DNA of 64,000 bases from NCBI GenBank assembly GCA_963921275.4, contig OZ001293.3, forward strand, positions 6,144,001 through 6,208,000. Direction: 5' to 3'. The notes beneath the pieces are model-generated. The model was not told the origin of the DNA, searched no databases, and saw only the letters and a list, made by a program, of their open reading frames with translations. This document shows positions 20,284 to 43,954 of this stretch, piece after piece (within the stretch, counting starts at the first letter, position 1; the number at the start of each line of letters is the position of its first letter). The translations under genes were made by a program, and so were the position numbers. This DNA comes from an uncultured Hormoscilla sp. (GTDB lineage: Bacteria > Cyanobacteriota > Cyanobacteriia > Cyanobacteriales > Desertifilaceae).

Positions 20284-20905
20284 CTATGACGCGGGGGTTT
20301 GAACCTCCGGCGGGGTAACGGAACTCCGATTGCCCTTCCGTTTCTGCACAGAAGACTGGCGAATGGGAATCGAAATGGCGAACTCTGCCCCCTCACCTGG
20401 TGCGGAAATACATTCGAGAGTGCCTCCATGTTTTTCTACCACAATCTGGTAGCCCCCAACCTGCCCCAACCCCAAACCCGTGCCCTTGCCCACAGGTTTA
20501 GTAGTGAAGAAAGGGTTAAACAAATTCTTTTTCGCCGACTCGGTTATCCCCGGTCCATTATCGGCAATACGGATGGCGACGCGATCGCAATCAATCTTTT
20601 CTGCGCTCGTCCAAATAGTAGGAATAGGATTCTTTGATTGTCCCGACTCGGGAGTCTGTGGCGATGAACGATCGCTTAAACCATAAGCTTCTTCCAAGGC
20701 ATCGATCGCATTATTGAGTAGATTGATAAACACTTGGTTTAGTTGCCCGGGATAGCACTCAATGTAAAAGAGACTACCATACTCTTTAAGCACCTGAATT
20801 ATCGGATCGCCGCTCTGGTTTTTCAGCCGATTTTGCAGGAGCATTAAGGTACTGTCGATGCCAGAGTGAATGTCAGCTGCTTTCATATCTGATTCGTCCA
20901 ACCGC
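20284..20905 (-). pseudogene. Histidine kinase HATPase domain fragment
   Basis: QLNQVFINLLNNAID, IADNGPG, PFFTTKPVGKGTGLGL; N-terminus and H-box absent. Confidence 0.85.
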
Positions 20906-21095
20906 AGCTCCGATGTGCTCTGCTGCTGTGTCTCCTGGGAGCTCGATGTCCCCCGGGAGCGCTACTCGCACTACCCGGGGGACACCGAAGTCGCACTACC
21001 CAGGAGACACAGCGCGCTACTCGCACTGCGCGGAGCACATTAATCGCACATCGTGCAAAGATAGGACTATCTTGCGGATGCGATGGGCTCCATTT

Positions 21096-21358
21096 CAATA
21101 CTTCTCGGTTAACAATCTGTCATTGCGAGGGGGAAACCAAAACCGACATTTTAGGGCTCCAAGCGATGATCCCCCCGTTAGCGCAGCGGCCCGACGCCAG
21201 GAGGGCTAGCAATCTCACCGACGACGCCGGAGAACTCTTCATCTCATACGGGGCGGGGGGATTGCTTCGGGGGGGGGTTAACGAACATGAACACATAAAT
21301 TAATCGCTACGTACCCCCCCTCGCAATGACAAATAAAATCCTTAACCGAGAAGTATTG
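21096..21358. mobile_element. 263-bp MITE with 17-bp TIR and 10-bp target duplication
   Basis: CAATACTTCTCGGTTAA ... TTAACCGAGAAGTATTG; GGCTCCATTT on both sides (21086-21095, 21359-21368). Confidence 0.88.
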
Positions 21359-21380
21359 GGCTCCATTTTGCATCTGCATA

Positions 21381-22411
21381 TTAAAGGCGATCGCCAGTTT
21401 GGACATCAAACCAATGAATCCGATCGGGTGGCACAGCTAAGGTAAGTCGTTCTCCTTCCCAAGCTTGGTCATTAGGCAACAATACTCGCAGAGTCAACCC
21501 ATCTGCGATGTCCGACGGGCAGTGCGAGTAGCGCGCCCGGAGGGCATCGAAACCCTCAACCCTAAGCCTGATGAGATTGTGCATTCCCAAATTTTCCACC
21601 AAATCTACCGTTCCTTCAATCTTCTGAGGGTCTTCTGGGCGGGCGAGGCGGAGATGTTCAGGACGAATACCCAGTATAATGGACGGGGACATTTGGAGCA
21701 ACTCCCGCCCGTGCATGAGAAAGTCCCCCAAAACCGCAGCTTGTCGGTGGCATTGCAGTTGGAGTAAATTCATCTGGGGACTACCCACAAAAGAAGCGAC
21801 AAATTTATTAGCTGGATGGGTATAAATTTGCGTGGGGGTGTCTAGTTGCTGGACTATCCCATTGTTGAGAACTGCCACTTTATTAGAGAGAGTCATTGCC
21901 TCGGTCTGGTCGTGGGTGACGTAAATTACTGGCACTTGCTGGGATGCAAATATCTTTTTCATCTCAGCTCTTACCCGTTCTCGTAGTAGGGCATCCAGGT
22001 TACTCAGGGGTTCATCCAGTAAGAATACATCAGGACGACGCACGAGGGCGCGACCCAGAGCAACCCGTTGCCTTTGTCCCCCAGATAGTTGACCCGGTTT
22101 GCGGTCCATTAACGCTTCCAGTCCTAGCAGTTTAGCATATTCAGCGATCCGCTGTTTGATTTCAGAAGAGGGTACTTTTTTCAACTTCAGTCCCGATGCC
22201 AAGTTGTCATATACTTTCATGTGGGGATACAGGGCGTAGCTTTGAAACACCATCGCCATGTTGCGATCGCCCGGTTGGAGGTTTGTCACATCCCGCCCAC
22301 CGATTAATATCTTTCCCCGAGTAGGTTGTTCTAACCCTGCTATCATCCGCAGGGTCGTTGATTTGCCACAACCCGACGGTCCCAATAAGGTAAGAAATTC
22401 TCCATCTGCTA
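21381..22411 (-). pseudogene. 5'-truncated duplicate of the sugar ABC ATPase at 38068..39132
   Basis: Near-identical DNA; lacks the first ~27 codons; carries a 45-bp in-frame insert. Confidence 0.9.
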
Positions 22412-23579: not shown

Positions 23580-24470
23580 GGCTGTGTATAGCATTGTTAT
23601 CACCGGCAGAATATGGACGATCGCAGTTGGGTTGGGAAGAGGAGGGAATGAGGAACTGATGCCATCAAACCCTTACTAGATAAGCGTTTGAAGCAAGTAG
23701 CGAAAAATTTTTGCTCCCAAGCCAAAAAAGGGTTGACAAATGATTTTTTGGCGTCTACTATAGGTAAAGTGCGGTAACCGCAGCATCAGCCCCCCCAGCC
23801 TAAAGACTGGGGCTACACTGAATAGAGGTTGTAGGCGATAGCTGGCTTCGTTGGCCGCGTCGGCCATCATTAGGCGCGCTCGGGCCTTCGGTAAATCTGA
23901 GGGATCTGGGCTGTGTATACTATTGTGATAGCTGGCAGAATATGGGAAATAACTGGCAGAATATGGGCGCTCGCAGTTGGCTCCCGAAGATGATCGAATG
24001 AAGATCGGATGCATTCAAACCCTTACTAGATAAGCGTTTGCAGTAAATGGCGAAAAAAAATTTGCTCCCAAGCCCAAAAAGGTTGACAAATGATTTTTTG
24101 ACGTCTACTATAGGTAAACTGCGGTAACCGCAGCATCAGCCCCCCAGCCTAAAGACTGGGGCTACACTGAATAGAGCGCCGGTTGTAGGCAAGCTGGCTT
24201 CGTTGGCCATTCGCGTCGGCCATCATTAGGGGTGCCTTCGGTAAATCTGAGGGATCTGGGCTGTGTATACTAGAGCTGGCAAAATCAGGGAGATAACCGG
24301 CAGAATCGGGGCGATCGCAGTTGGCTCCCGAAGATGCTCGAATGAAGAGCGGATGCCTACAAACCCTTACTAGATAAGCGTTTGCAGTAAATGGCAAAAA
24401 AATTTGCTCCCAAGCCCAAAAAGGGTTAACAAATGATTTTTCGGCGTTTACTATAGGTAAAGTGCAGTAA
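23580..24470 (+). repeat. Three tandem ~345-bp units, each with a sigma70-like promoter
   Basis: TTGACA-17-TACTAT at 23733 and 24083; TTAACA-17-TACTAT at 24426; shared CAAACCCTTACTAGATAAGCGTTTG. Confidence 0.85.
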
Positions 24471-24489
24471 CACTCTGACAAGATTTCCG

Positions 24490-24831
24490 ATGGTTTCCAA
24501 CCAGCAGCTCATTCACGACCAACCCCAACCAATAAGCTTTGAGTCAAATGGCTCCAAGTCGGAAAAAAGTGTGCGATCGCTCCTGCTCGACAGGCTTTTG
24601 TCCCCCGATAGCCAACCCGGACGCTATTTCGATGGAGAAGCGATGCAGCAATTGATTGCTAGCATTAAGGAAAACGGCATCTTACAGCCGTTGCTGGTGC
24701 GACCTGTGGGAGATAAGTATGAATTGGTTGCGGGGGAACGCCGGTTAAAAGCCGCTCGGACAGTGGGACTGACAGAAGTTCCGGTGACTGTGCGGGAGAT
24801 GACTATTGAGTCAGGAATAGATTATCGATAG
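24490..24831 (+). pseudogene. ParB N-terminal domain fragment
   Basis: SIKENGILQPLLVRP...YELVAGERRLKAA; the frame ends before the HTH. Confidence 0.85.
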
Positions 24832-24879: not shown

Positions 24880-25203
24880 GTGATGACAAAAGATTGGCAG
24901 ATTGATTATCAACAAGCAAGGTTGGAAGAAATCCTAGAAGATGGTACAGTTCGTTGTCATCTTTCACCAAGAAACTGCAAAATCAAGGAAGGGCAGCAAG
25001 GATTCTGTGGGATCAAACAAGTATATGATGCTGGCAAACATTTGGAACTTAGCACTTTGATGATCACGGACATCAGTGATCATGAAGAGACAGCAATGAA
25101 GATCTCTGACTGGATGATGGAAAATCTTGATTCCACTAGCGACGTTGGCATAGGCGAAAACCTAGGGTTCGTGTCACCAGACGCAAGTCAGTACAATCCA
25201 TAA
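24880..25203 (+). pseudogene. Internally deleted AmmeMemoRadiSam-type radical SAM enzyme
   Basis: N-terminal VRCHLSPRNCKIKEGQQGFCG joined directly to the late segment GKHLELSTLMI...ISDWMMENL; CxxxCxxC core absent. Confidence 0.6.
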
Positions 25204-25600: not shown

Positions 25601-26560
25601 TTGCTTTGTCGGATGCGAAGAGCAGAACATCTGAGAGATTTTATCGCAGAGCAGCTGCTTTCGCTCCAGGACTTATGCCACCCAGTATTCATTCGCAATG
25701 ACATTACAGATTCAGTGCCTGTCGAAAATCTGCCTAGCGTTTTCGACTTTTCGGTTGAGAAGGCGATTGATGAGATAAAAATGGTTCGAGATCTTGGGAT
25801 CAAACATTTTGTTGTGCGCCCTCGTCCTGATAAAGTATTGGCTGACGATCCACAAACTGTTCTGAAATTTGAAGCTGAAGTTATTGAAAAAATTGCTAAG
25901 GCTTGTCCTGATGTGATCAAGCTCATTAATGGATATTTCGGCATGACTAGAAGCAATGGTCATTATGGTAAGGTCAACGATGACGGTTCGGTTAATTTGG
26001 AGGAATCTTTGCGCGAGCTAACCGAACATGCAATTGTTCAAGGTCAGGCTGGAGGAGATATTATTATTTCACTCGGTCGTCTCGATAATGCTGTTAGCTC
26101 GATACGCACTGGACTTAACTCTGTTGGTTTACATAACGTCGCGATTCTTGCCTATTCAGTCAATTTTGGCTCCTCTTTAGCTCACGCTATGCTCGATGGA
26201 ACCGAAATGGCAGAGAATGCTTACACTCAGACTATAGCTAGCAAAATTGGTGTTGGAAATATTGAAGAGGCTTTGCGCCAAACAGCGATTGAAGTCGCTC
26301 AAGGCGCTGATTACCTTGGTGTCAAGCCAGCAACTATCTTTCTCGATGCCATCGCAAGGGTTAAGCAGGAGTTTAAGCTACCAGTTGCGACTTATATCGT
26401 TTCTAAGGAATATTGCATGGTGAAAGCAGCAGCTGAACGTGGCTGGATCAATGAGCATGACACTGTTATAGAATATATGCTTAGCATGAAGCGTGCTGGT
26501 GCTGACAAAATCTTCAGCTACTGGGTTCACGATCTAGTTCGCTGGTTAAGATCTGGTTGA
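25601..26560 (+). CDS. Divergent porphobilinogen synthase (HemB/ALAD) homologue
   Basis: RMRR, DLCHPVF, QGADYLGVKPA, YIVSKEYCMVKAAAERGWI, KRAGADKIFSY. Metal-ligand segment and first Lys are altered. Confidence 0.85.
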   Translation: MLCRMRRAEHLRDFIAEQLLSLQDLCHPVFIRNDITDSVPVENLPSVFDFSVEKAIDEIKMVRDLGIKHFVVRPRPDKVLADDPQTVLKFEAEVIEKIAKACPDVIKLINGYFGMTRSNGHYGKVNDDGSVNLEESLRELTEHAIVQGQAGGDIIISLGRLDNAVSSIRTGLNSVGLHNVAILAYSVNFGSSLAHAMLDGTEMAENAYTQTIASKIGVGNIEEALRQTAIEVAQGADYLGVKPATIFLDAIARVKQEFKLPVATYIVSKEYCMVKAAAERGWINEHDTVIEYMLSMKRAGADKIFSYWVHDLVRWLRSG

Positions 26561-26606
26561 TCGATCCAATTTTAAGATTGATTTAGAAATTAACTTTGAA
26601 GGAAAG

Positions 26607-27515
26607 ATGAGCGACGTGACTAATTCTACTCCAGGTGGCATTGCTACTCGACCGCTTGGTAAAACCGGCAGACGAGTAACTGTTATAGGCTTGGGTACAG
26701 CGCCGATTGGATTAAGTGGTTATCAAGATCCAAATTTCGACCAGAAACGGTCAGAGAAGGAGTCTTTATGTGCGATTGAAACTGCTATCGAGCACGGCAT
26801 TACTTTTTTCGATACGGCACCAGCTTATGGTAACAAAGTCCCCACCGATGGTTGGTCAACTGACCGAGCCTCAGAACGAATGCTTGGTTTGATACTCGGG
26901 CAATATCGCGCTGACCGAGAACAGCTTTTTATAGCCACTAAAAATATGTTCGATCAGATGGATGCTGACGGTATCCGTAGATCATTGGATTATAGTTTGA
27001 AGCTATTGCAGACTGACTACGTCGATCTCTTTCAAATTCATGGAATTGTTGCTAATTCTTTCCGAGCTGATAATTGGCGGCAGTTCGTTACTGATGAGGT
27101 ACTGCAGGTTTTTTTAGATTTACAAAAAGAAGGCAAAACTCGTTATATTGGCATTTCAGGATACCGTGAGGGAGGCTTATCCGCTGCGATTGAGAGTAAT
27201 TACTTCCAGACGGTTATGCCGCAATTCAATTACTTTTATCGAAGCCCCGAATGGGAGTTAGTCAAGCTGGCACAGCAACATAGAGTAGCTGTTATTCCAA
27301 TGCGTCCAGTCACTGGTGGTTTGTTTCAAAAGCTTCAAAAAGATTGGTTGTTAGAACAAGTACCTCCAATCAATCCATTCAAGATGGCAATGAAGTACAT
27401 TCTTCAGTTTGACTGCGTCTCGACCATTCCGGTAGGAATGCGCACCAGTCAAGAAGTTGAACAAAATGTGCGCTTGATCAAGAAACTTGATAGTGAGATG
27501 GGATTGTCTCGCTAA
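26607..27515 (+). CDS. Aldo/keto reductase
   Basis: RPLGKTG, FFDTAPAYG, SERMLG, FIATK, LQTDYVDLFQIH, GKTRYIGISG. Confidence 0.9.
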   Translation: MSDVTNSTPGGIATRPLGKTGRRVTVIGLGTAPIGLSGYQDPNFDQKRSEKESLCAIETAIEHGITFFDTAPAYGNKVPTDGWSTDRASERMLGLILGQYRADREQLFIATKNMFDQMDADGIRRSLDYSLKLLQTDYVDLFQIHGIVANSFRADNWRQFVTDEVLQVFLDLQKEGKTRYIGISGYREGGLSAAIESNYFQTVMPQFNYFYRSPEWELVKLAQQHRVAVIPMRPVTGGLFQKLQKDWLLEQVPPINPFKMAMKYILQFDCVSTIPVGMRTSQEVEQNVRLIKKLDSEMGLSR

Positions 27516-27595
27516 TTTCTTGAGGGCACCTAATTGCCCGTTTGTGATAACTGGTCGTATTTGATTGGCGATAGCCAATAGATTGAGATAGTAAC

Positions 27596-27871
27596 ATGAA
27601 CACACCCAACTATAGCAACGATATTTTTGAGCGTGTCGTCGATACATTACGAAGTTGTATTCCTAAACGTTCTCGCACAGCTGAAATGCAAATGGAAACT
27701 CAACTTACCGACTTCGGCATGGACTCACTTGTTTTTCTAGAATTTCTACTAGCTTTAGAGGCAGAGTTCGAGCTGAATCTTACTGGAGATGTTCTGAAAT
27801 TGAAGCAAGTGCTAACAGTTGGAGATGCAGTGGAATTAGTTAGCAACGAACTCACGAAGGTGAATATATGA
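27596..27871 (+). CDS. Acyl carrier protein
   Basis: GMDSL phosphopantetheine site, LEAEF, TVGD; 91 aa. Confidence 0.9.
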   Translation: MNTPNYSNDIFERVVDTLRSCIPKRSRTAEMQMETQLTDFGMDSLVFLEFLLALEAEFELNLTGDVLKLKQVLTVGDAVELVSNELTKVNI

Positions 27872-28809
27872 ATTCAACTCCCGTTGCTGCTATTGGAAAC
27901 TTAGGATATGCCCTTGGTGACTTATACCCGCTTCAAGTTTTGGATGTACTAGCAGATAATCAAAAGTTACTGACTGCACTCAAAGCTAAAGGCATTTTGC
28001 ATTTTGCTCAAGCTACTGATACTCCAGTTGAACTTGCTTATCGTGCAGCGCGTGAGACGCTTGATTCATCAGAGGTAAAAGCCAAAGACATTGAGGCGAT
28101 TGTTTATGCCTCAACCAGTTTCTGGAAAAAGCAGTTCTACTCTGAAAGGGATATAGCTTGGTTGATGAATCAGCTAGGCTTGGTAAATGCTTATCCAGTT
28201 GGCGTGTTCTTACCTGGTTGTGCCAATGCTATTTCATCAATGCGCGTAGCCATCAATATGATCCGCGCTGAAGATTACCGTAATGTTATGGTAGTGACCA
28301 CTGATAAAGTGATTCCAAGAGACAGTGTCAAACGTATAATGTGGCCGGATGTCTCTGTCTTATCTGATGCTGCTGCATCTTTTCTGGTTACACCAGGTAA
28401 CCAGGGTGAATTTAATGTGATTTCAGCCAGTAATAAAAGTACACCGTTGATGTGGGATCTCGACAATCAGAGTAATTTGGCTGCATTCCTAGTGTCAACG
28501 GTTAAAGGTGCGCAGCAGACAGTAGCAGAGGCACTGCAGTTAGCTAATGTCGCTCCCAGCAGCATCCGTACCTTATTAAGTAATAACTATAATAATGATG
28601 TCATGGGAATGATGGCACGCAAATGTGGATTAAATGAAGATCGAGTCTACCTTGGTAATGTATCGCGCTTCGCTCATGCGTACGCTGCCGACACCCTGAT
28701 TAATCTTAAGGATCACCTTAGTAAATCACATGCTAAACAGGGTGACTGTTTCATGCTTCTCGGTACGGGGCACAAGAACTGGGGAGCCGTTGTGTTGCAA
28801 AAAACTTGA
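27868..28809 (+). CDS. FabH/KAS III-like condensing or acyl-transfer enzyme
   Basis: Catalytic-position PGCAN, SDAAAS, AHAYAADTLINL, GxG...WGA; ATGA overlap with the ACP stop. Confidence 0.8.
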   Translation: MNSTPVAAIGNLGYALGDLYPLQVLDVLADNQKLLTALKAKGILHFAQATDTPVELAYRAARETLDSSEVKAKDIEAIVYASTSFWKKQFYSERDIAWLMNQLGLVNAYPVGVFLPGCANAISSMRVAINMIRAEDYRNVMVVTTDKVIPRDSVKRIMWPDVSVLSDAAASFLVTPGNQGEFNVISASNKSTPLMWDLDNQSNLAAFLVSTVKGAQQTVAEALQLANVAPSSIRTLLSNNYNNDVMGMMARKCGLNEDRVYLGNVSRFAHAYAADTLINLKDHLSKSHAKQGDCFMLLGTGHKNWGAVVLQKT

Positions 28810-28861
28810 TCGGCGTGACATCGTGAGACTATAAACACAAATCAGAAATTATAGATTGTCA

Positions 28862-29584
28862 ATGGAAAACATACAAGCCAAAACAAACAACACAGCCAAT
28901 GGAGGTAAAAATATAATAGCGCTAGATCACTTACGTAATGTCTTGAGCGTGCGCTATTCAGCTAGAGCATTCCTACCCGAGGTGCTGTCACGCGAACGGA
29001 TTGAGCGACTCCTCGAGGCTGCTGCGCTGTCGCCATCTTGGTGTAATACGCAGCCTTGGAAAGCTTATGTGGCTTCCAGTACGACTTTGAATGAGATCAG
29101 CAAGGATTTGGTTAAGGCGGCACGAGACCGCTGTGATACTCCTGATATCCCGTTTATCTCTGAATATCCAGAACCCTATCAAAGCCGTAAGCAAGAAGCT
29201 GACGAGGCATTGCGATTAGCCAGAGGTATTAATCCTACTGATTATCGTAGTCTAGTTCATGCAGTATATGCTAACTGGCGCTTCTTTGATGCCCCTCAGG
29301 CATTATTTTTAACCGTTCCTGCATCATTCGGTCCTTATGCTCTACTCGATCTGGGTTGTTTCTTACAGAGCTTCTTGCTGGCTTGCGTTACTGATAATCT
29401 AGCTGCCTGTCCACAAGCATCTCTAGCGCAATATCCTGAAGCAGTGCGACGAAACTTACCAATTGAGGCAGATGAATTGATTGCCTGCGGAGTTTCTTTC
29501 GGTGTCCCTGACCCTAATGCTGGTGCTAATAAATATAGAACTAGTCGCATTGGAGTTTCTGATTTTGTCCATTTCCAAGAGTAG
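28862..29584 (+). CDS. Nitroreductase-family flavoprotein
   Basis: RYSARAF, SPSWCNTQPW, FFDAP, DLGCFLQSFLL, ACPQAS. Confidence 0.9.
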   Translation: MENIQAKTNNTANGGKNIIALDHLRNVLSVRYSARAFLPEVLSRERIERLLEAAALSPSWCNTQPWKAYVASSTTLNEISKDLVKAARDRCDTPDIPFISEYPEPYQSRKQEADEALRLARGINPTDYRSLVHAVYANWRFFDAPQALFLTVPASFGPYALLDLGCFLQSFLLACVTDNLAACPQASLAQYPEAVRRNLPIEADELIACGVSFGVPDPNAGANKYRTSRIGVSDFVHFQE

Positions 29585-29613
29585 ATAAAACCTGCTCATA
29601 TAGTGACTTTTGA

Positions 29614-31275
29614 GTGATTAAAATGACTGTTCATATTCCAATGTCTGTTTGCTCAACTCCCAGTTGGCGTATTGGTGAGATTGCAAAGCTCCTTGCAGCC
29701 AATACGTATAATACACTGACTTACTTTGATGCATCAGGGATAGCTCAGATTCGATATTTCCCAGAGATTATGCAAGATGCTTTATCAACTTTGGCTCTGT
29801 TGCGCAAGATATGCAACTCAACTCAACTTGGTAACCGTTGTGCTATTGTCGGTAACCCCGGATATCCTTGGTTGTTAGTAGCGCTAGCCTGTATTGTAGC
29901 CAAGATAGAGATTGTTGCTATACCAGAGTCTTTAGAAGATAGTGAAGTTCAGGCTAGTCTTCAAGACTTATCACTAGACTTTGTGGCTACAGAAACTAAA
30001 TTCGCGAATTATAATGTTTTTCAGGGTCTACCACATCTGAATCTAGATAGCCTATTAAAATAAATCACCAGCATTGACTCGATTCCCGAACCACCCGAGG
30101 ATGGAGAATTTAGCTTGGTTGCATTCACATCAGGCTCGACTTCAACAGCTAAGGTTAAGTCATTTCGTGTTAATTCAGCTTCCACAGAATTGTTCATTGA
30201 TACTTTTGTCGAACTATATAGATTTACCCATGACGAAAACTGGATAGTATGCCATTCGTTTTCTCATATCGTTCACTTAGAATATGTGTTGGGAGGGTTA
30301 TGTTGGGGTTACAATATTACTATTACTGATCCACTTAGACTTGTCCTTAATGCCGCGCAACTCAAACCTTCAATTTTAGTAACAGTTCCTGGTGTGTACG
30401 AGCAGATAGTTGGGCTAATTAAGAGCAAGTTGCCCAAAAGTGGCCCGCGGAGAGCATTGATTAACAAGCTTCTGGAGCAGCCAGTTAGCGAAGAAACGCG
30501 ATTACTTGCGCAAACAATACAACCGATATTAATGCCTGAGATTAACAAGCTACTTGGTAACCAGCTAAAAGTTATGATCTTTGGTTCTGCCCCCTCTACA
30601 AAGGAACTTAAGCGTACCCTCATTCTATTCGGTTTGCCAGTTTACGAAGGGTATGGTATGTCTGAAACTAATATGTTGACCTGCAATTTACCAAATCAAT
30701 ATCGCTACAACACGGTTAATCCTGTCTGGCCCGGAGTTGAACTAAAACTTAATGAAAAAGGAGTTATTCAGGCTAAGCTTCAATGCAAGCGCACTAGCAG
30801 TTATCTCAATCTTACTACTGAGGAAAATGCCCAGACCTTTATTGGAGACGGTTGGATCGATACTGGAGATGTTGGTGAATTTGAAGATGGATTTTTAAGT
30901 ATCATTGGTCGTGTTAAGGAACTGATTATTACTAATCGTGGTGAGAATGTGAACCCCGCACCAATCGAGTTGAAGCTGAAGAAAATAGAAGGATTTAAAG
31001 ATGCTTTAGTTTTCGGTAACAATAAACCCTTTCTAGTCGCTGTACTAGCTCCATATCAAGCTAACTCCCCGTTAAACTCAGACCGGATTACAGCAGCAGT
31101 TACGGTGATTAATAAGAGCCTTCCTGTATCGGAGCGAATCCGCGACTACTTGCTTATCAAAGAGCCTTTCACTGAAGCCAATGGGCTACTAACCCGTTCT
31201 GGAAAGTCGCGCATATCTCTCATTGAAGAACGTTTTCAATCCGAAATTGAAGCACTTTATGAACGTCATAATTAA
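29614..31275 (+). pseudogene. AMP-dependent (acyl-CoA/ACP) ligase with one in-frame stop
   Basis: ORFs 29614..30063 and 30115..31275 share a frame; TAA at 30061-30063. Motifs FTSGST, YEGYGMSE, TGD, GRVKELI, GENVNP. Confidence 0.85.
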
Positions 31276-31291
31276 TAAAGTTGGAGTTACC

Positions 31292-32104
31292 ATGAGCGGC
31301 ATTTGTTCCCTACAAGGTGAGGTTATGAATAAAATTGATAACCTAGGTTGTAAAGTGATACTAGGAGACTTTGATTATGTTGCTAAACCGACGATTATTC
31401 GCGACTGCTTTGAGTTTACTTGGAACGAATGGGAAAGTAAGATTAATTACCTTCTTAAGACAATAGATCCTAAAATCACACCCTTGGTAAGCCTCTATGC
31501 TCGTGTCCGCGGAGTTCAGGAGGCTCAATTGCTGGAGCAGTTGTCACATGTTGCTAATAATTATCCTGACCTTGGTGTGTTGTTCCACTTTTTCGATGTC
31601 GAAGCCATGTCTCGTGCACTCGATATTTATCGAGGACGACCATTGATTAATTATGTTAGTGGAGAGAAATGGGCACTTGAGCGGATCTTACCGCTGCTTA
31701 AACGTCATCCAGTTCCAATAGTTATACAACCAATTGGTGACATGGGTATACCACCGACAGTGAACGAGCGTATGGAGATTATCCAGCATATTGCCAATAC
31801 TTTTACGCGAGTTGGCATCGACCGCCGAGATATATACGTTGATGGTCTAACTCCAGCACTTGGCACCCTTGAGTTTTCACTTCAAGTTAGCCTCAAAACA
31901 ATAACTGCTGCCAAGGAGGCAGGTTTCGAGACTATCTTATGGCCAGCAAACGCTGGTCTTGGACATCCTGACGGTAAATTTATTGCTGCTACTTATGCTG
32001 CAATGGCTGTACAAGCTGGCTTAGATCTAGCTGTCGTAGCATCGGCTGATAGAGAAATTTATACAGCTATTGCTCAAGCTAACCTAATTCTCCGAGATAG
32101 TTAG
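31292..32104 (+). CDS. Pterin-binding domain protein (MetH/AcsE/DHPS-like barrel)
   Basis: RPLINYVSGE, GIPPT..ER, GIDRRDIYVD, AVQAGLDLAV; GGAG RBS before ATG 31292. Confidence 0.7.
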   Translation: MSGICSLQGEVMNKIDNLGCKVILGDFDYVAKPTIIRDCFEFTWNEWESKINYLLKTIDPKITPLVSLYARVRGVQEAQLLEQLSHVANNYPDLGVLFHFFDVEAMSRALDIYRGRPLINYVSGEKWALERILPLLKRHPVPIVIQPIGDMGIPPTVNERMEIIQHIANTFTRVGIDRRDIYVDGLTPALGTLEFSLQVSLKTITAAKEAGFETILWPANAGLGHPDGKFIAATYAAMAVQAGLDLAVVASADREIYTAIAQANLILRDS

Positions 32105-32341
32105 ATGACAACTTCATTTCAAAAAGATCTCGAGTCTTTGCGTTCACAAATTGATGATATTGATAACAAGCTATTGGAGCTATTAGTGCACAGAGTCGAA
32201 ATTTCAAGCATCATTGCTAAGATGCTGAAGCTCCCTGAAGATTGGATATCAGAGTTATTCAAGATCGTCCTACTAGGTTGTAGAACTATTTCGCATGAGC
32301 GTCTCGAAAATGAACGATCAAGTCGAGAATATATTGACTAA
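32105..32341 (+). CDS. Chorismate mutase type II / PchB-like protein, probably internally deleted
   Basis: LESLRSQIDDIDNKLLELLVHR helix; the central RE-containing segment appears to be missing. Confidence 0.7.
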   Translation: MTTSFQKDLESLRSQIDDIDNKLLELLVHRVEISSIIAKMLKLPEDWISELFKIVLLGCRTISHERLENERSSREYID

Positions 32342-32368
32342 AAGACAACATTAGTTAAGGAGTTCAAA

Positions 32369-32650
32369 ATGACAATTCTTCGTGTTTTTCTGCAATCACC
32401 TCTTGACACTGTAGTTGGGGTGACAAAAGAAGAGACAAAATCGATTAATGCTGATACCGTTTACGGGGCTTTGATTGATCTATGTAACTCACATCCTAGC
32501 TTGCGGAATCGGTTGTTCAATGGCGAGCAGCTTAATCCATTTATTAACGTCTTTCTGAATGGTGAGTTGGTGCAACCCTATCAGTGCAAACAACAACCTA
32601 TTACTGACTATGACGAGCTATGTTTATTGTTTGCAATCCGCGGAGGTTGA
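32369..32650 (+). CDS. MoaD/ThiS ubiquitin-like sulfur carrier
   Basis: 93 aa; FINVFLNGE; C-terminal AIRGG. Confidence 0.88.
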   Translation: MTILRVFLQSPLDTVVGVTKEETKSINADTVYGALIDLCNSHPSLRNRLFNGEQLNPFINVFLNGELVQPYQCKQQPITDYDELCLLFAIRGG

Positions 32651-32652
32651 TC

Positions 32653-33066
32653 ATGATTGTGCCACAACATATCAGAAATCAAATTATTTTACATTGCCAA
32701 GAAAAGGCACCTTATCAGGCTTGTGGATTAGTTCTCTTTAACTCAGATGGTGTTGCTCAGTCGGTTGAGAAGGCGACTAATTACGGTGCCTGGCCTTACG
32801 GTTTCCATATTGCCCCCAAATCGCAGCTTAATGCCTTCCGTAGAGCACAGAAGAAAGGCTGGTCGATTGGGGGAGTTTATCATTGCCATGCAGTATCAGA
32901 GGCAATCCCAACCGGTCGAGACCTTGAACGTCCAGTTCCCCCTAATATCCTCTACATCATTGTTTCACTACTATTCCCAGATCGACCGGAAATTCGTGGT
33001 TTCACTTTAACCAATGGTGTCCCAAGTCCTATCGATCTCGACACTGGTAAATCGTTGATTCACTAG
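32653..33066 (+). CDS. JAB/Mov34 (M67) metallopeptidase
   Basis: PYQACGL (Q where E is usual) and YHCHAVSEAIPTGRD, a HxH-x10-D pattern. Confidence 0.85.
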   Translation: MIVPQHIRNQIILHCQEKAPYQACGLVLFNSDGVAQSVEKATNYGAWPYGFHIAPKSQLNAFRRAQKKGWSIGGVYHCHAVSEAIPTGRDLERPVPPNILYIIVSLLFPDRPEIRGFTLTNGVPSPIDLDTGKSLIH

Positions 33067-33122
33067 AGTTTACTAGTCCTACATAACTAACATGGATTTT
33101 GTCCTGTACTTAGGGTGAACCT

Positions 33123-34544
33123 ATGTCTATCATTCCCGATCGTATTAACTGGCTTCTTCACCAACAAGAACTCTATCAATTTCTTGTAACTTGTCAGCAT
33201 AATTTTACAGCCCAAGATAGCGAACGAATTATTAGTTTCTCTCAAGCCTTAAACCCACTCGATCCGCTAGCATTTTGTCAAGCAGCTTCTCCCACAAAAA
33301 ATCAATCATATTTTTATCTTGAAAATCCCAGAAAAAAGCAAGCAATAGCTGCTGTTGGAATCACCAAATCAACCACTATTGATTCTCCAAACCGCTTTCT
33401 CAAATCCCGGAAATTTGTTCAGTCTTGTCTTCAGAAAAATATTTGCACTGGCGATCTTCAATTGCCAGGTAGTGGACCATATTTTTTCTGTAATTTCACC
33501 TTCTTCGATTCTCCGGAAAATAGCGACCATTTGTTTCCCTCTGCTACTATTTTTTTACCTATTTTTTATGTATATATATCCAAAAAATGCTGTGTTTTAG
33601 TAGCTAATTTTATTGTCGATTTTAAACGAGATATAGAACTGACTTTCCAGGAAATTCAACAGCAATTTAAAGCTATCCGGAATGCTACTCGCAGTTCTAT
33701 TAACTTAACGTTTATACCACCAGAACAATTGATCCGAAAAGCCTCAGATCATCTTTCCAACTACCAAACATCAGTCATATAAATCTTAAAATCTATTCAC
33801 AAAAAGCAGGTTAGTAAAGTTGTACTTGCCCACACCCTCGATGTCATTTCCCTCATTCCCTTTGGAGTCTTTGAATCTCTTAATCGTCTGCGGCGGCGAC
33901 ATCCCAATTGCTATATCTTCTCTATTAGTAATGGCAACGATAACCACTTTATGGGTGCTAGTCCCGAACGTCTCCTTAGTATCCACAACCAAAAACTTGT
34001 TACCGATGTTCTTGCCGGTTCTGCACCCAGAGGGAAAATAACTTCAGAGGATATCAGCTTTGCCAACAGACTATTGCGGAGTGAAAAAGAGAGGCGAGAA
34101 CACCAAGCTGTGAGTGATTTTATCACCCAGCAGCTTTACCAACTAGGATTGCAACCCCTGCAGTCTCCGCTACAACTGTTGCAACTCTCTAATATTCAAC
34201 ATTTGTGGATGCAAATTCAAGCAAGCGTTCCAAGCGACCTCCATCCTCTCGATATAGTTGCCCAATTGCATCCCACTCCAGCAGTTGCCGGAGTTCCCAC
34301 TGAAATAGCCTGCGAACAAATTCGCCGCTACGAAACTTTTAATCGCACTCTCTATGCTGCGCCGGTAGGCTGGGTAGACTATCAAGGCAATGGAGAATTT
34401 ATTGTTGGTATTCGATCTGCCATGATTTCAGGAAATCGCGCCCGCCTTTATGCAGGAGCAGGCATTGTAGCTGGTTCCGATCCTAATAAGGAACTTGCAG
34501 AGGTTGAACTCAAACTACGATCGCTTTTGAGTGATTTGGGGTAG
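33123..34544 (+). pseudogene. menF: Isochorismate synthase (MenF-like) with one in-frame stop
   Basis: 33123..33782 and 33951..34544 share a frame; TAA at 33780-33782 then KVVLAH, GASPERL, LHPTPAVAG, GIRSA, AGAGIVAGS. Confidence 0.88.
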
Positions 34545-34727
34545 CTCGCCCCATTATCCCATTTTCCTAGGGTGTGTCATCAAATAGGGAGGAAAGTAGG
34601 ATAAACTCAAAAGCGCCACTGTCCAACCCCCCAAACCATGAGTGATATGAGCACCCGCCGCTATGCGTGATGATCAACAGAATTCTTGAGATAACATCAA
34701 AAACAGTTGAGCCAATTGAGGAAGAAG

Positions 34728-36890
34728 ATGAATCTAGCAAACCGGACAGAAGTCAGTCAAACCAAAAGTAGCTATGAGACTCAAAAAGGTATAATTATCC
34801 ATCGAACCATTGAAGCCTTGCCGGACTCAGGGACTATGGATGACCTAATTGAAGCTCTCAATGAATCGCGCGGAGTTTTATTATCCTCTAATTATGAAGT
34901 TCCTGGACGTTATCGTCGTTGGATGTTTGGTTTTATCAACGCCCCTCTTTCAATTAGCGCAATTGGTCGCTCTTTTCAAGTTTCTGCTCTAAACGAACGT
35001 GGACAAGTTATTTTGCCTTTTATTAGAGCGGCGGTTCAACAGTTGAGTGCGGTCGAGTCTATTTCGTTTGACGCAACTGAACTCTCCGGTTCGGTCTGTG
35101 TTACGACCGAGCGTTTCCCGGAAGAGATGCGCAGCAAACAGCCTTCAATTTTCTCGCTTTTACGTTGCTTGATCGAAGTTTTTTATAGCGACCAAGATCC
35201 TTATCTTGGTCTTTATGGTGCTTTCGGCTACGATCTCGCTTATCAATTTGAGAATGTAGAAAAACAAATACCACGCCTACCTGGACAACGTGACTTGGTG
35301 CTATTTATTCCCGATCAGATTTATGTTGTAGACCATTATCGAAATTCCGCCTTTATCAGTTATTATGACTTTGAAATCAATGGGAAATCTACTGTTGGCC
35401 TTAGTCGTGATGGTCTGAGCGTTCCCTATCATCCATCTACTCGGGTAAGTTGTAGCTGCGATCACGAACCAGGACAATACGCGGATTGCGTACGCCAGGC
35501 GCGAGAATACTTTCAGCGTGGCGATTTGTTTGAAGCCGTACCTGGCCAGACCTTTTTTGAACCAGCCAAATTGCCGCCGTCAGCAATTTTTAGGAGTTTG
35601 CGAGAACGCAATCCATCACCTTATCAATTCCTAATTAACCTGGGAGAGCAGGAGTATTTAGTTGGAGCCTCTCCGGAAATGTATGTGCGCGTCATTGGTC
35701 GGCAAATCGAAACCTGTCCCATTTCCGGCACAATTGATCGTGGCAACGATGCTATCGGCGATGCGACGCAGATACGTGAGCTGCTGAATTCCGAAAAAGA
35801 TGAATCTGAACTAACAATGTGTACCGATGTTGATCGCAATGATAAATCCCGGATTTGTATTCCAGGAACAGTTCGTGTAATTGGTCGCCGACAAATCGAA
35901 CTTTACTCTAAACTTATTCATACCGTCGATCACGTCGAGGGGAAACTGGCTGATGGCTACGATGCCCTAGACGGTTTTTTAACCCATACTTGGGCGGTGA
36001 CTGTGACTGGAGCTCCCAAGCTTTGGGCTATGCGTTTCCTTGAGGAACATGAACGTTCACCCCGCAATTGGTACGGTGGTGCCGTCGGCGTTATCGGATT
36101 CAATGGTGACCTAAATACAGGTCTAACATTACGGACAATCCACATTCAAAATGGTATTGCAAAAATTCGTGCTGGTGCAACGCTGCTTTACGATTCAGAT
36201 CCTAAGAAGGAAGAAGAAGAAATCTATCTAAAGGCTGAAATATTCTTAGAGATCGTTCGCGGCTCCAGCAACAGACAAACTCATAAGTGTATTGATCAAA
36301 GCAAAAAAAAGGGGATCGGTAAGCGAATTGTCTTAATCGATCACCAAGACTCTTTTGTTCATACTCTAGCTAACTATTTTCGCCAAAGCGGTGCAGAAGT
36401 CACTACCTTTCGTCCTGGTTTCGATATCGATTACCTCAAATCGGCTAAACCAGATCTTGTTGTCTTATCACCGGGACCTGGTCGTCCTAGTGACTTTTTG
36501 TTAAGCAATACGATCGCAATAGTGAGACAACTAAACTTGCCAATGTTTGGTGTATGCTTGGGACTTCAAGGAATTGTTGAATATTTTGGTGGCAAGCTTG
36601 GGATATTACCTTACCCAATGCACGGCAAGGCTTCTGAAGTGATTCTTCAGGAAAGCAAGCTCTTTGCTGGCCTACCGAAAAAGCTGAAAGTTGGTCGTTA
36701 TCACTCTATCTATGCTATCAAAGAGGAAGTACCACCGATACTTAAAGTTACAGCTATGACAGAAGATGGTATTGTAATGGCTGTAGAACATGAGTTCCTG
36801 CCAGTTTCTGCTGTGCAATTTCACCCAGAATCGATACTTACTTTAGAAGGTAATGTGGGTCTTAAGATTATTAATAATGCCATCCCTTAA
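34728..36890 (+). CDS. trpE: Fused anthranilate synthase TrpE(G)
   Basis: NPSPY, ASPEMYVRV, TCPISGT, TVTGAPK, AGATLL; GATase part DSFVHTL, LSPGPG, GVCLGLQ, QFHPES. Confidence 0.93.
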   Translation: MNLANRTEVSQTKSSYETQKGIIIHRTIEALPDSGTMDDLIEALNESRGVLLSSNYEVPGRYRRWMFGFINAPLSISAIGRSFQVSALNERGQVILPFIRAAVQQLSAVESISFDATELSGSVCVTTERFPEEMRSKQPSIFSLLRCLIEVFYSDQDPYLGLYGAFGYDLAYQFENVEKQIPRLPGQRDLVLFIPDQIYVVDHYRNSAFISYYDFEINGKSTVGLSRDGLSVPYHPSTRVSCSCDHEPGQYADCVRQAREYFQRGDLFEAVPGQTFFEPAKLPPSAIFRSLRERNPSPYQFLINLGEQEYLVGASPEMYVRVIGRQIETCPISGTIDRGNDAIGDATQIRELLNSEKDESELTMCTDVDRNDKSRICIPGTVRVIGRRQIELYSKLIHTVDHVEGKLADGYDALDGFLTHTWAVTVTGAPKLWAMRFLEEHERSPRNWYGGAVGVIGFNGDLNTGLTLRTIHIQNGIAKIRAGATLLYDSDPKKEEEEIYLKAEIFLEIVRGSSNRQTHKCIDQSKKKGIGKRIVLIDHQDSFVHTLANYFRQSGAEVTTFRPGFDIDYLKSAKPDLVVLSPGPGRPSDFLLSNTIAIVRQLNLPMFGVCLGLQGIVEYFGGKLGILPYPMHGKASEVILQESKLFAGLPKKLKVGRYHSIYAIKEEVPPILKVTAMTEDGIVMAVEHEFLPVSAVQFHPESILTLEGNVGLKIINNAIP

Positions 36891-37382: not shown

Positions 37383-38067
37383 TATGTTTACCCCTATATC
37401 ATCGGATTTATAGGCAAGGCGATCGGAAACGTATGGGGTCACTGGCGGTAATTGGGCGGTAATTTCTCCTATTTATTCTTGGTGACAATCCGGAGAGTAA
37501 AAGGCGATCGCATTTAACCGCTCTTTACGAGCGTCCTTCCACCTCCTGAATGATAAAGTCTCTCTCTTGCGGTCGGCTACAGAACTGGGTGCTGCCTTTC
37601 ATACCTGCGGTGAAATACTCTTCCTTGCATACCCAATGACGATCGCCTTTCTCCGGTTCCACATAGCGACCAACGATAGTGAAATCGCCCTGCCAGTCCA
37701 ACCGATACAGAATGCGATCGCCGTGCCTGGGAGCGCGCTCGGTCGAGGGCAGTCTGGCGAGTCTCTGTTTCTGTTCTTGGCTCAGTCCCCGAGCAATTTG
37801 GTTCAGTCCCTCAATGCCATATAACTCCCGGATTACCTTCTCCTGGTGTCAGCTGCTTTCATATCTGATTCGTCCAACCGCAGCTCCGATGTGCTCTGCT
37901 GCTGTGTCTCCTGGGAGCTTGATGTCCCCCGGGAGCGCTAACCGCACTACCCGGGGGACATCGTAGTCGCACTACCCAGGAGACACAGCGCGCTCCATAT
38001 CGCAGGAGCACATTAATCGCACATCGTGCAAAGATAGGACTATCTTGCGGCATTTTGCATCTGCATA

Positions 38068-39132
38068 TTAAAGGCGATCGCCAGTTTGGACATCAAACCA
38101 ATGAATCCGATCGGGTGGCACAGCTAAGGTAAGTCGTTCTCCTTCCCAAGCTTGGTCATTAGGCAACAATACTCGCAGAGTTAACCCATCTGCACCCTCA
38201 ACCCTAAGCCTGATGAGATTGTGCATTCCCAAATTTTCCACCAAATCTACCGTTCCTTCAATCTTCTGAGGGTCTTCTGGGCGGGCGAGGCGGAGATGTT
38301 CAGGACGAATACCCAGTATAATGGACGGGGGCATTTGGAGCAACTCCCGCCCGTGCATGAGAAAGTCCCCCAAAACCGCAGCTTGTCGGTGGCATTGCAG
38401 TTGGAGTAAATTCATCTGGGGACTACCCACAAAAGAAGCGACAAATTTATTAGCTGGATGGGTATAAATTTGCGTGGGGGTGTCTAGTTGCTGGACTATC
38501 CCATTGTTGAGAACTGCCACTTTATTAGAGAGAGTCATTGCCTCGGTCTGGTCGTGGGTGACGTAAATTACTGGCACTTGCTGGGATGCAAATATCTTTT
38601 TCATCTCAGCTCTTACCCGTTCTCGTAGTAGGGCATCCAGGTTACTCAGGGGTTCATCCAGTAAGAATACATCAGGACGACGCACGAGGGCGCGACCCAG
38701 GGCAACCCGTTGCCTTTGTCCCCCAGATAGTTGACCCGGTTTGCGGTCCATTAACGCTTCCAGTCCTAGCAGTTTAGCACATTCAGCGATCCGCTGTTTG
38801 ATTTCAGAAGAGGGTACTTTTTTCAACTTCAGTCCCGATGCCAAGTTGTCATATACTTTCATGTGGGGATACAGGGCGTAGCTTTGAAACACCATCGCCA
38901 TGTTGCGATCGCCCGGTTTTAGGTTTGTCACATCCCGCCCACCGATTAATATCTTTCCCCGAGTAGGTTGTTCTAACCCTGCTATCATCCGCAGGGTCGT
39001 TGATTTGCCACAACCCGACGGTCCCAATAAGGTAAGAAATTCTCCATCTGCTACTTGCAAACTGATGTTATTTACTGGAACTACTTTCTGACTGTAGGTT
39101 TTGTTCAGATTAATTATTTCTACTTTGGCCAT
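38068..39132 (-). CDS. Carbohydrate ABC transporter ATPase (MalK-like)
   Basis: GPSGCGKS, LSGGQRQR, LLDEP, C-terminal TOBE-like region. Confidence 0.95.
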   Translation of the reverse strand: MAKVEIINLNKTYSQKVVPVNNISLQVADGEFLTLLGPSGCGKSTTLRMIAGLEQPTRGKILIGGRDVTNLKPGDRNMAMVFQSYALYPHMKVYDNLASGLKLKKVPSSEIKQRIAECAKLLGLEALMDRKPGQLSGGQRQRVALGRALVRRPDVFLLDEPLSNLDALLRERVRAEMKKIFASQQVPVIYVTHDQTEAMTLSNKVAVLNNGIVQQLDTPTQIYTHPANKFVASFVGSPQMNLLQLQCHRQAAVLGDFLMHGRELLQMPPSIILGIRPEHLRLARPEDPQKIEGTVDLVENLGMHNLIRLRVEGADGLTLRVLLPNDQAWEGERLTLAVPPDRIHWFDVQTGDRL

Positions 39133-43748: not shown

Positions 43749-43868
43749 GGAAACACTAAAGTGTTTACTACAAACGGCGGAAACACTAAAGTGTTTACTA
43801 CAAACGGCGGAAACACTAAAGTGTTTACTACAAACGGCGGAAACACTAAAGTGTTTACTACAAACGGC
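43749..43868. repeat. 30-bp perfect tandem repeat x4 with internal palindrome
   Basis: GGAAACACTAAAGTGTTTACTACAAACGGC. Related to the reverse complement of GTTCGTAGTAAGGACTTTAGTC, seen twice at 42403-42453. Confidence 0.9.
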
Positions 43869-43954
43869 GATATTATGACAATGTAATTTGCGCACATCCG
43901 CCGATGTTGCCGCTCAACCTTGTCTCACAATAACTTAGCCCCGGAGTTCTGGCT

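Follow-up and report, generated by a model that had tools for sequence, protein, structure and literature searches.

The window analysed here, a stretch of 64,000 nucleotides (G000:C1:6144001-6208000) from the 7.0-Mb genome of an uncultured Hormoscilla sp. with cyanobacterial gene content, carries a cluster of twelve genes at 25601-36890, all on the + strand and separated by gaps of -4 to 186 bases; positions refer to the window unless prefixed by C1, the contig of source genome G000, or by a locus identifier. The families encoded are, in order, ALAD, aldo/keto reductase (AKR), acyl carrier protein (ACP), KAS III, nitroreductase, AMP ligase, pterin-binding, chorismate mutase II, ThiS, Prok-JAB, isochorismate synthase and TrpE(G). 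The cluster is real and apparently undescribed, with a repurposed enzyme, a paralogue of porphobilinogen synthase (PBGS, HemB/ALAD), as its first gene product. In its intact form it is very probably a dedicated pathway using anthranilate or 2-amino-2-deoxyisochorismate (ADIC). The most far-reaching reading, at a probability of about 0.3, is that a PBGS was recruited for specialized metabolism as a one-lysine heterocyclase, which would convert N-aroyl-5-aminolevulinate (N-aroyl-ALA) to an aryl-oxazole, or to an aryl-thiazole where a MoaD thiocarboxylate provides the sulfur; this would be a pyochelin-type aryl-azole route free of cysteine and of nonribosomal peptide synthetase (NRPS), which mobile elements would have carried from lake bacteria into Acinetobacter and, in the form of a second family, into Photorhabdus and Streptomyces. 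Our best explanation, plausible if less than even, is that the intact cluster makes a 2-(2-aminophenyl)thiazole from anthraniloyl-ACP, ALA and MoaD thiocarboxylate, again without NRPS. To our knowledge, and from a literature search, no HemB paralogue acting as a natural-product biosynthetic enzyme has been described.

The unusual part of the cluster is this paralogue. Its model (pLDDT 83.9) adopts the PBGS TIM-barrel (Z 33.0, rmsd 2.7, 288 residues aligned to 1W1Z), with class I aldolases as the next fold matches (Z 18.2). The protein belongs to a family of 19 members at 42-100% identity, family 1, compared with ≤36% to canonical HemB (best 120 of 313 matches); its PRK09283 score of 227 bits lies below the NCBIfam cut-off of 297, a profile search of 1.84 billion representatives gave only three rows above 280 bits, and the ESM Atlas returned only ALAD and pterin-binding clusters. 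Family 2 comprises 38 proteins (P0327-P0364, 363-422 aa), with source names including Photorhabdus, Xenorhabdus, Pantoea, Klebsiella, Streptomyces, Rathayibacter and Sphingobium. Families 1 and 2 are ~25% identical to each other, and a branch with support of 100 (FastTree, with a long-branch warning) separates both of them from canonical HemB. A residue census of 15 family-1, 12 family-2 and 16 canonical HemB proteins found K238 and S264 kept in 43/43 and Y303 in 15/15 family-1 proteins. These residues align to K246, S272 and Y311 of E. coli 1B4E, which we take to be the P-site, with its Schiff-base lysine and the serine and tyrosine that bind the carboxylate. The A-side lysine column, on the other hand, is K in 16/16 canonical proteins, N in 14/15 and H in 1/15 of family 1, and N in 12/12 of family 2. 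Metal-ligand columns 108 and 118 are aromatic in 27/27 proteins of the two families; in the paralogue the metal-site and lid columns read Y/G/Y at 108/110/118, L at 194 and K at 211, and R156 and K211 are new and invariant in 27/27. PBGS and paralogue are therefore alike in fold and in the P-side Lys, Ser and Tyr, and differ in the A-side Lys, the Zn/Mg ligands, the lid Arg/Gln and the allosteric Glu, all of which are replaced; moreover, the hosts keep a canonical hemB. Judged by its residues, with the second lysine and the metal ligands lost, the paralogue would no longer work as a PBGS, and has the look of an enzyme whose lysine can still bind one 4-oxo acid and whose new pocket takes up an aromatic partner.

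A profile search with the KAS III protein gave 11 loci in genome contigs and 3 in metagenomes. Ten genes, from HemB-like to JAB, stand in the same order in G1329 (one of 2 matches among 301 genomes of G461's family), in L011/L022 (L011, a Propionivibrio metagenome-assembled genome (MAG), is 100% identical to L022 in DNA, and the two are counted once), in L012 (a Polynucleobacter MAG), in L024 and, over two contig ends, in Blastococcus (L035 and L034). A rhodanese-ThiF protein of the MoeZ type (PRK08762, 458 bits at a cut-off of 449) follows JAB in 5/5 independent full-length clusters; in L011/L022, L012 and L024 it is succeeded by TrpE(G), and menF is missing. In G1329 all 15 genes are intact on a single contig. 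Directly upstream in L022, L024 and G1329 lie luxR, a gene for a DUF4902 protein, presumably RsaM-like, and luxI, which in L022 is preceded by the palindrome AACTGTCAACCTTAACAGTT (16/20); in Proteobacteria the operon would be under N-acyl-homoserine lactone quorum sensing. A double-GTPase system (DO-GTPase1/2, GAP1) is found upstream of luxR at L022:835-5380. In Blastococcus the first four genes lie at one contig end and the remainder, MoeZ included, at another; a 395-aa open reading frame (ORF) at L034:6560-7747 joins the pterin-fold and AroQ domains in this single genome, and the opposite strand encodes an isochorismate synthase and a protein that we take to be PhzE-like from its short N-terminus and its low TrpE scores. 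A minimal version resides in L014, an Acinetobacter MAG, where a distant HemB-like gene, ACP, KAS III and ligase face trpG and trpE with no sulfur module, inside a TniABQ element (L014:2332-20885) that it shares with a CBASS locus; the latter consists of Cap4-SAVED, a JAB protein with the normal Glu and a ThiF-domain protein.

The amino-chorismate enzymes accompanying the cluster are of three kinds, TrpE(G), TrpE plus TrpG, and PhzE-like, and an isochorismate synthase is attached twice, in the window and in Blastococcus. From the gene order kept across loci and the minimal version in L014 it follows that, on gene content, the core is HemB-like protein, ACP, KAS III, ligase and amino-chorismate enzyme, and the extension AKR, nitroreductase, pterin-fold protein, AroQ, MoaD, JAB and MoeZ, with isochorismate synthase optional. 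The earlier note on this DNA had proposed a pathway that combines anthranilate supply and a sulfur carrier, and had named synteny in unrelated genomes as the check that would speak for a dedicated one; the gene order shared by five independent loci, which span three phyla, and the three kinds of amino-chorismate enzyme support this. Salicylate, to which the note also pointed, finds no support as a core part, because menF is absent from 4/5 independent full clusters and broken in the window. Members carry source names such as Fluviibacter phosphoraccumulans, A. baumannii and A. schindleri, and the cluster is rare and mobile. Along these lines, the cargo of the Acinetobacter baumannii island AbaG1 includes anthranilate synthase I and II and a putative ALA dehydratase; the accessible text of that report describes these genes as island cargo only, with no pathway or product proposed (PMC1326220). 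The AbaG1 protein CAJ76999 belongs to family 2 of the HemB-like proteins.

The remaining seven loci of the KAS III search (Nostocales, 30-35% identity) are different clusters. A conserved one (L017-L021) combines FrhB-like and EPSP synthase-like proteins, a Zn dehydrogenase, an adenylation protein and a class III aminotransferase, and one of its genes is presumably an amidinotransferase. A more distant relative (26% for KAS III) belongs to a Ralstonia megaplasmid cluster (L030, CP056086.1) with two ACPs, desaturases, a carbamoyltransferase and a tRNA-ligase-like gene, present in 114 Ralstonia records.

The favored heterocyclase route would begin with TrpE(G), assigned to its family by sequence, making anthranilate, which the ligase would load onto the ACP. 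KAS III, for which triad and fold are in place, would move the aroyl group to an amine, and the likely acceptor is ALA with its C5 amine. N-aroyl-ALA would then be held by the HemB paralogue as the Lys238 iminium in the P-site it has kept, the rebuilt A-site accommodating the aryl group, and the paralogue would close the ring. MoeZ would charge MoaD as thiocarboxylate, whose attack on the iminium carbon could provide the thiazole sulfur and give 2-(2-aminophenyl)thiazole-5-propanoate. The analogy is to ThiG, which forms the thiamin thiazole, and BexX, which forms a 2-thiosugar; both are barrel enzymes with one Schiff-base lysine and a ubiquitin-fold thiocarboxylate as partner. The paralogue represents another barrel family, and neither ThiG nor BexX is among its 50 listed fold matches. 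The Glu-to-Gln JAB may release MoaD by cleaving a thioester instead of an amide, and AKR, nitroreductase and pterin-fold protein would perform tailoring steps. The sulfur-free Acinetobacter core would lead to the oxazole, and isochorismate synthase with AroQ to the salicyl analogue; the proposal would thus account for the sulfur-free version and for the optional salicylate genes, and the twofold attachment of isochorismate synthase is as expected if either aryl cap fits.

Among the other enzymes, KAS III has C118, H270 and D275 invariant in 24/24 proteins and N239 in at least 90%; the top folds are NatS (Z 35.8), ChlB3 (34.4) and CerJ (33.6), with BioZ (33.5) and FabH (33.4) tying with CerJ, at identities of 16-20%. 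The H-x4-D spacing is that of His296/Asp301 in ChlB3 (PMC9573744), and in Pau29 the first His is replaced by Asn as it is here (PMC4425429), according to the accessible text of both sources. By its triad KAS III is predicted to be a Cys-His-Asp acyltransferase of the CerJ/ChlB3/NatS kind rather than a PqsD-like enzyme. MoaD ends in AIRGG in 5/5 and, since it already ends in GG, needs no uncapping; JAB keeps HxH-x7-T-x2-D and reads QACG in 5/5, against EACG in 2KKS, Gln taking the place of the catalytic Glu. Methyl-folate methyltransferases are the nearest, though weak, matches of the pterin-fold protein (the L022 homologue matches 2YCI at E 1.1e-14), and no corrinoid partner for it is present in the cluster. 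The nitroreductase matches 3GR3 (E 1e-30) and NfnB, 2WZV (E 3.8e-25).

The layout works most like that of the benzoxazole clusters. Caboxamycin (cbxA-I) and nataxazole (natL1/natAC1/natS/natAM) combine an aryl acid, ligase, ACP, KAS III and a cyclizing hydrolase (PMC5481532); shared, as far as the available text of that source goes, are the chorismate-derived aryl acid supply, AMP ligase, free ACP, KAS III-like acyltransferase and a single ring-closing barrel enzyme. The present cluster differs in having the HemB paralogue and MoaD/JAB/MoeZ instead of an amidohydrolase and the 3-hydroxyanthranilate enzymes isochorismatase and trans-2,3-dihydro-3-hydroxyanthranilate (DHHA) dehydrogenase, and its KAS III is only 19% identical to NatS; no ORF in the window, L022 or L051 encodes any of these three. 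Altogether the cluster fails defining features of the HemB, Pqs, thiocarboxylic-acid and benzoxazole families. No description of this gene set was found in a literature search that left most subscription journals outside and included no MIBiG comparison, and the main text and three supplements of PMC5552033 gave no match; it is distinctly unlikely that the product is already known.

Several observations weigh against the heterocyclase. No ALA synthase is encoded in the cluster, ALA being deduced only from the kept P-site. The best matches of the ligase are fatty-acid, malonate and o-succinylbenzoate ligases, all weak and none for an aryl acid (FadD11 E 7e-29, MatB E 1.5e-13). The sulfur module is found where pterin-fold protein, AroQ, AKR and nitroreductase are also present and does not accompany the HemB paralogue by itself, so that sulfur may instead be accepted by the pterin-fold protein or by the ligase. 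A thiazole needs no redox step, so that two conserved oxidoreductases are left over, and AKR, nitroreductase and pterin-fold protein remain unexplained. The family-2 proteins are without the P-site Tyr, and the searches gave no close KAS III for Photorhabdus, Xenorhabdus, Klebsiella, Streptomyces and other bacteria that have family 2; the enzyme may therefore serve other chemistry. Further genomes with a family-2 context outside Acinetobacter were not found (0/401 actinomycetes, in a search without a positive control).

Two alternatives share some of this evidence, and each is unlikely to a similar degree. According to the first, the aniline nitrogen and the ALA ketone would close to a 4-quinolone or 1,4-benzodiazepinone, and sulfur would enter at a later stage, in the form of a thiocarboxylic acid or an S-methyl thioester; thioquinolobactin, PDTC (pyridine-2,6-dithiocarboxylic acid) and yatakemycin are examples of this. 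Amino-chorismate supply in every version, with isochorismate synthase in two only, suits a role for the aniline nitrogen, and a methyl-folate-fold protein is part of the cluster. Ligase, MoaD, JAB and MoeZ make up the thioacid kit (PMC6006322), and sulfur carrier, JAMM, MoeZ-type activator and adenylate ligase likewise recur in the thiocarboxylic acid pathways and in chuangxinmycin cxnE/cxnF (PMC6006322, PMC5925218, available text); ligase, carrier and activator are all present in the intact loci, and in the window the activator is absent and the ligase broken. The kit of thioquinolobactin (qbs), PDTC (pdt) and thioplatensimycin (ptm), however, has a type III CoA-transferase, named as conserved in the accessible part of PMC6006322, and none occurs among the ORFs from HemB-like to trpE(G) in the loci examined, all of which belong to other families and are the only part of these genomes searched for one. 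The cluster has a single ligase, which the sulfur-free version also retains; moreover, it has an uncapped carrier, a JAMM protein with Gln for Glu, a MoeZ with N-terminal rhodanese, and ACP and KAS III in addition. JAMM proteins of the QbsD/CxnF type combine a capped carrier with E-x(n)-HxH-x7-S-x2-D, whereas the carrier here ends in GG and JAB has Gln; because of these two features a QbsD-type role of JAB, the precedent named in the earlier note, finds no support.

According to the second, the acyl unit would not be anthranilate, or the substrate of the HemB paralogue not ALA: the ligase would load an aliphatic acid, KAS III would acylate anthranilate or an ADIC-derived amine, and the one-lysine barrel would cyclize a different keto acid in the manner of a class I aldolase. 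The ligase is indeed nearest FadD11, MatB and MenE, the pterin-fold-AroQ fusion and PhzE-like synthase of Blastococcus point to separate processing of a chorismate-derived ring, and class I aldolases are the next folds after PBGS (Z 18). Yet P-site Lys, Ser and Tyr of PBGS are all kept in family 1, and the ligase matches are too weak to fix its substrate.

That the HemB paralogue is a decoy or detoxifying binder for an alaremycin-like ALA mimic, a product inhibiting heme synthesis, is improbable. It would be in keeping with a paralogue that can hardly be a working PBGS, its second Lys and metal ligands being gone, and that is encoded by the first gene of the operon, and PBGS-binding mimics do exist, the ALA-like antibiotic alaremycin occupying the PBGS pocket (PMC9356726). 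The alaremycin cluster, in the available text of that source, has an MFS exporter and no hemB; a copy that confers resistance should have kept its activity, and the new Arg156 and Lys211, invariant across two families ~25% identical, look like a rebuilt active site.

A PqsA/PqsD-like course, in which malonyl Claisen extension of the anthraniloyl unit would give 2-aminobenzoylacetate and then a quinolone, or Knorr condensation with ALA a pyrroloquinolinone, has little chance of being right. The Pseudomonas system likewise has an anthranilate synthase, a ligase, a FabH fold and a quorum-sensing link, the matches of the present ligase being too weak to assign it a substrate; PqsC and PqsD are among the KAS III fold matches (Z 32.4, 31.4), and a one-lysine PBGS would suit a pre-activated beta-keto partner. 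Against this, the present KAS III, with Cys118-Asn239-His270, has a Cys-His-Asp triad and not Cys-His-Asn, an ACP is present, and there is one KAS III only. The His/Asn pair for decarboxylative condensation is replaced by Asn239/His270 with Asp275, a non-condensing acyltransferase pattern as far as the available texts go (PMC4425429, PMC9573744); because of this triad the PqsA/PqsD (Claisen, alkylquinolone) logic of the earlier note finds no support. Finally, a chance gathering of unrelated genes, or a cofactor or primary pathway, which the broken window copy among decayed genes might suggest, deserves almost no credence: chance is refuted by the order kept in five independent loci from three phyla, with luxI/luxR linkage besides, and a cofactor or primary role is opposed by housekeeping hemB, menF, trpE and trpG elsewhere in G000 and by a patchy spread (1/401, 2/301 and 1/201 genomes in three genome sets) that makes essentiality unlikely.

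The features of the window's own copy are compiled in Table 1.

Table 1. Genes of the window cluster and of its left flank, with the basis of each assignment.
Feature	Coordinates	Strand	Basis or remark
ParB N-terminal fragment	24490..24831	+	PF02195 E 4.9e-22, residues 28-105 only; left flank, outside cluster
AmmeMemoRadiSam-type radical SAM remnant	24880..25203	+	TIGR04337 partial; left boundary of insertion
HemB (porphobilinogen synthase) paralogue	25601..26560	+	PF00490 E 1.4e-63
Aldo/keto reductase (AKR)	26607..27515	+	PF00248 E 8.5e-39; 71% to L022
Acyl carrier protein, GMDSL motif	27596..27871	+	PF00550; 60% to L022
KAS III-fold acyltransferase, Cys118-His270-Asp275	27868..28809	+	triad invariance, fold matches
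FMN nitroreductase-family protein	28856..29584	+	PF00881; nearest solved relatives NfnB-like
Adenylate-forming ligase, in-frame TAA	29614..31275	+	57% over 549 aa to intact L022 ligase
Pterin-binding (MeTr/DHPS-fold) protein	31292..32104	+	PRK07535 E 1.5e-29, below cut-off
AroQ (chorismate mutase/pyruvate lyase fold), 78 aa, internal deletion	32105..32341	+	PF01817 residues 1-28 of 80 only
MoaD/ThiS-type sulfur carrier ending AIRGG	32369..32650	+	PF02597, SAMP1
JAB/JAMM protein, Gln for catalytic Glu	32653..33066	+	PF14464
MenF-like isochorismate synthase, in-frame TAA	33123..34544	+	TIGR00543; 43% to genome's own menF
Fused anthranilate synthase TrpE(G), PISGT motif	34707..36890	+	PRK13566 1115 bits (cut-off 645), TIGR01815 1067 (739)

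The start of the HemB paralogue is uncertain (homology from ~25577, first ATG at 25613), and ATG 34728 is the likely start of TrpE(G). The twelve tightly packed, co-oriented genes of the earlier note could be confirmed in type and position, but the damage they have suffered (two TAA stops, the AroQ deletion, no moeZ) had been overlooked. The AMP ligase carries an in-frame TAA at codon 150 (30061-30063) and menF one at codon 220 (33780-33782). Logan contigs spanning both sites showed 0 other letters and 0 gaps in 4/4 runs, which represent three samples of one study, possibly the source study; a sequencing error behind both stops was rejected on these grounds. Recoding or read-through of TAA is judged unlikely, because TAA is the commonest stop among the long ORFs of this genome (148/361). 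The window AroQ is without 27 core residues found in 3/3 aligned homologues, a stretch that would presumably hold Lys39, Asp48, Arg51 and Glu52 in the E. coli chorismate mutase numbering. The MoeZ-type activator of MoaD is absent, and menF occupies its place after JAB; a JAB-MoeZ pair elsewhere in the genome (C1:4372416-4374162) could act in trans. With ligase, AroQ and menF broken, the window copy is probably non-functional and makes nothing. Private changes at otherwise invariant columns are within the range of other members (HemB-like 4/119, KAS III 3/62, ligase 11/130), one of the HemB-like changes being D106N, at a position where the other 42/43 census proteins have Asp; no drift of the window proteins beyond that of their relatives emerges from these counts, and the decay therefore looks recent.

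In runs X1-X4 of the same samples the JAB and trpE(G) region (32668-32762, 35855-36716) is present in a second copy, ~90% identical and at higher depth, and pieces of the cluster at 80-100% identity occur in runs of four other studies. One contig from these other-study runs skips 30745-32566, its joint being weak evidence, and the menF region, barely covered by relatives in runs X5-X8, was not used as evidence.

G000 keeps separate, intact hemB, menF, trpE and trpG outside the cluster, whose versions are therefore extra copies, and the G+C content of the cluster genes is 37-46% compared to 47% genome-wide. An intact cyanobacterial copy was not found among 100 relatives, four congeners (within the matches listed) and 401 genomes of the phylum: KAS III had no close match in the 100 relatives, the congeners showed no match inside the cluster among the matches listed (164 weaker ones are unlisted), and the HemB-like profile matched G000 only among the 401. 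G063 has a lone TrpE(G) 85% identical to that of the window (L047:9039-11264), with no cluster genes within the 33 kb examined. An independent recruitment of the window TrpE(G) may fit its differences at 144/403 columns fixed in three proteobacterial cluster copies, yet it groups with these copies at 98/99 in a 15-row tree without alphaproteobacterial outgroups. No close member was found in viral contigs, phages or plasmids.

At the left boundary, the radical SAM remnant directly upstream of the cluster has an internal deletion of ~500 bases with its joint at 25008-25010; the gene is whole (408 aa) in congener G004 (L025). Just before the ParB fragment, 23599-24471 holds three imperfect copies, 84-86% alike, of a non-coding unit of ~350 bases that is also found in congeners. 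A sugar ABC ATPase gene in 1.25-kb direct repeat (95%) flanks the region at 20871-22411 and 37847-39053; its interpretation as a specific insertion scar was rejected, as partial copies exist in congeners G002 and G004 without the cluster. A short tandem repeat at 43749-43869 has an exact 60-base period component and encodes GGNTKVFTTN in one frame. Besides the intact canonical hemB at C1:2704257, a second one (Zn-type, two-lysine) at G000:C1:6353836-6354830 is frameshifted. A promoter scan scored no better than shuffles.

Two HemB-like families with a rebuilt active site, a JAMM protein always without its catalytic Glu, and a complete, quorum-sensing-linked unit of 15 genes in a genome of one contig make this pathway directly testable. 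If the proposal is true, it would provide a new way to azole rings and a new sulfur-insertion enzyme, and it would explain the long-unassigned cargo of the Acinetobacter island AbaG1.

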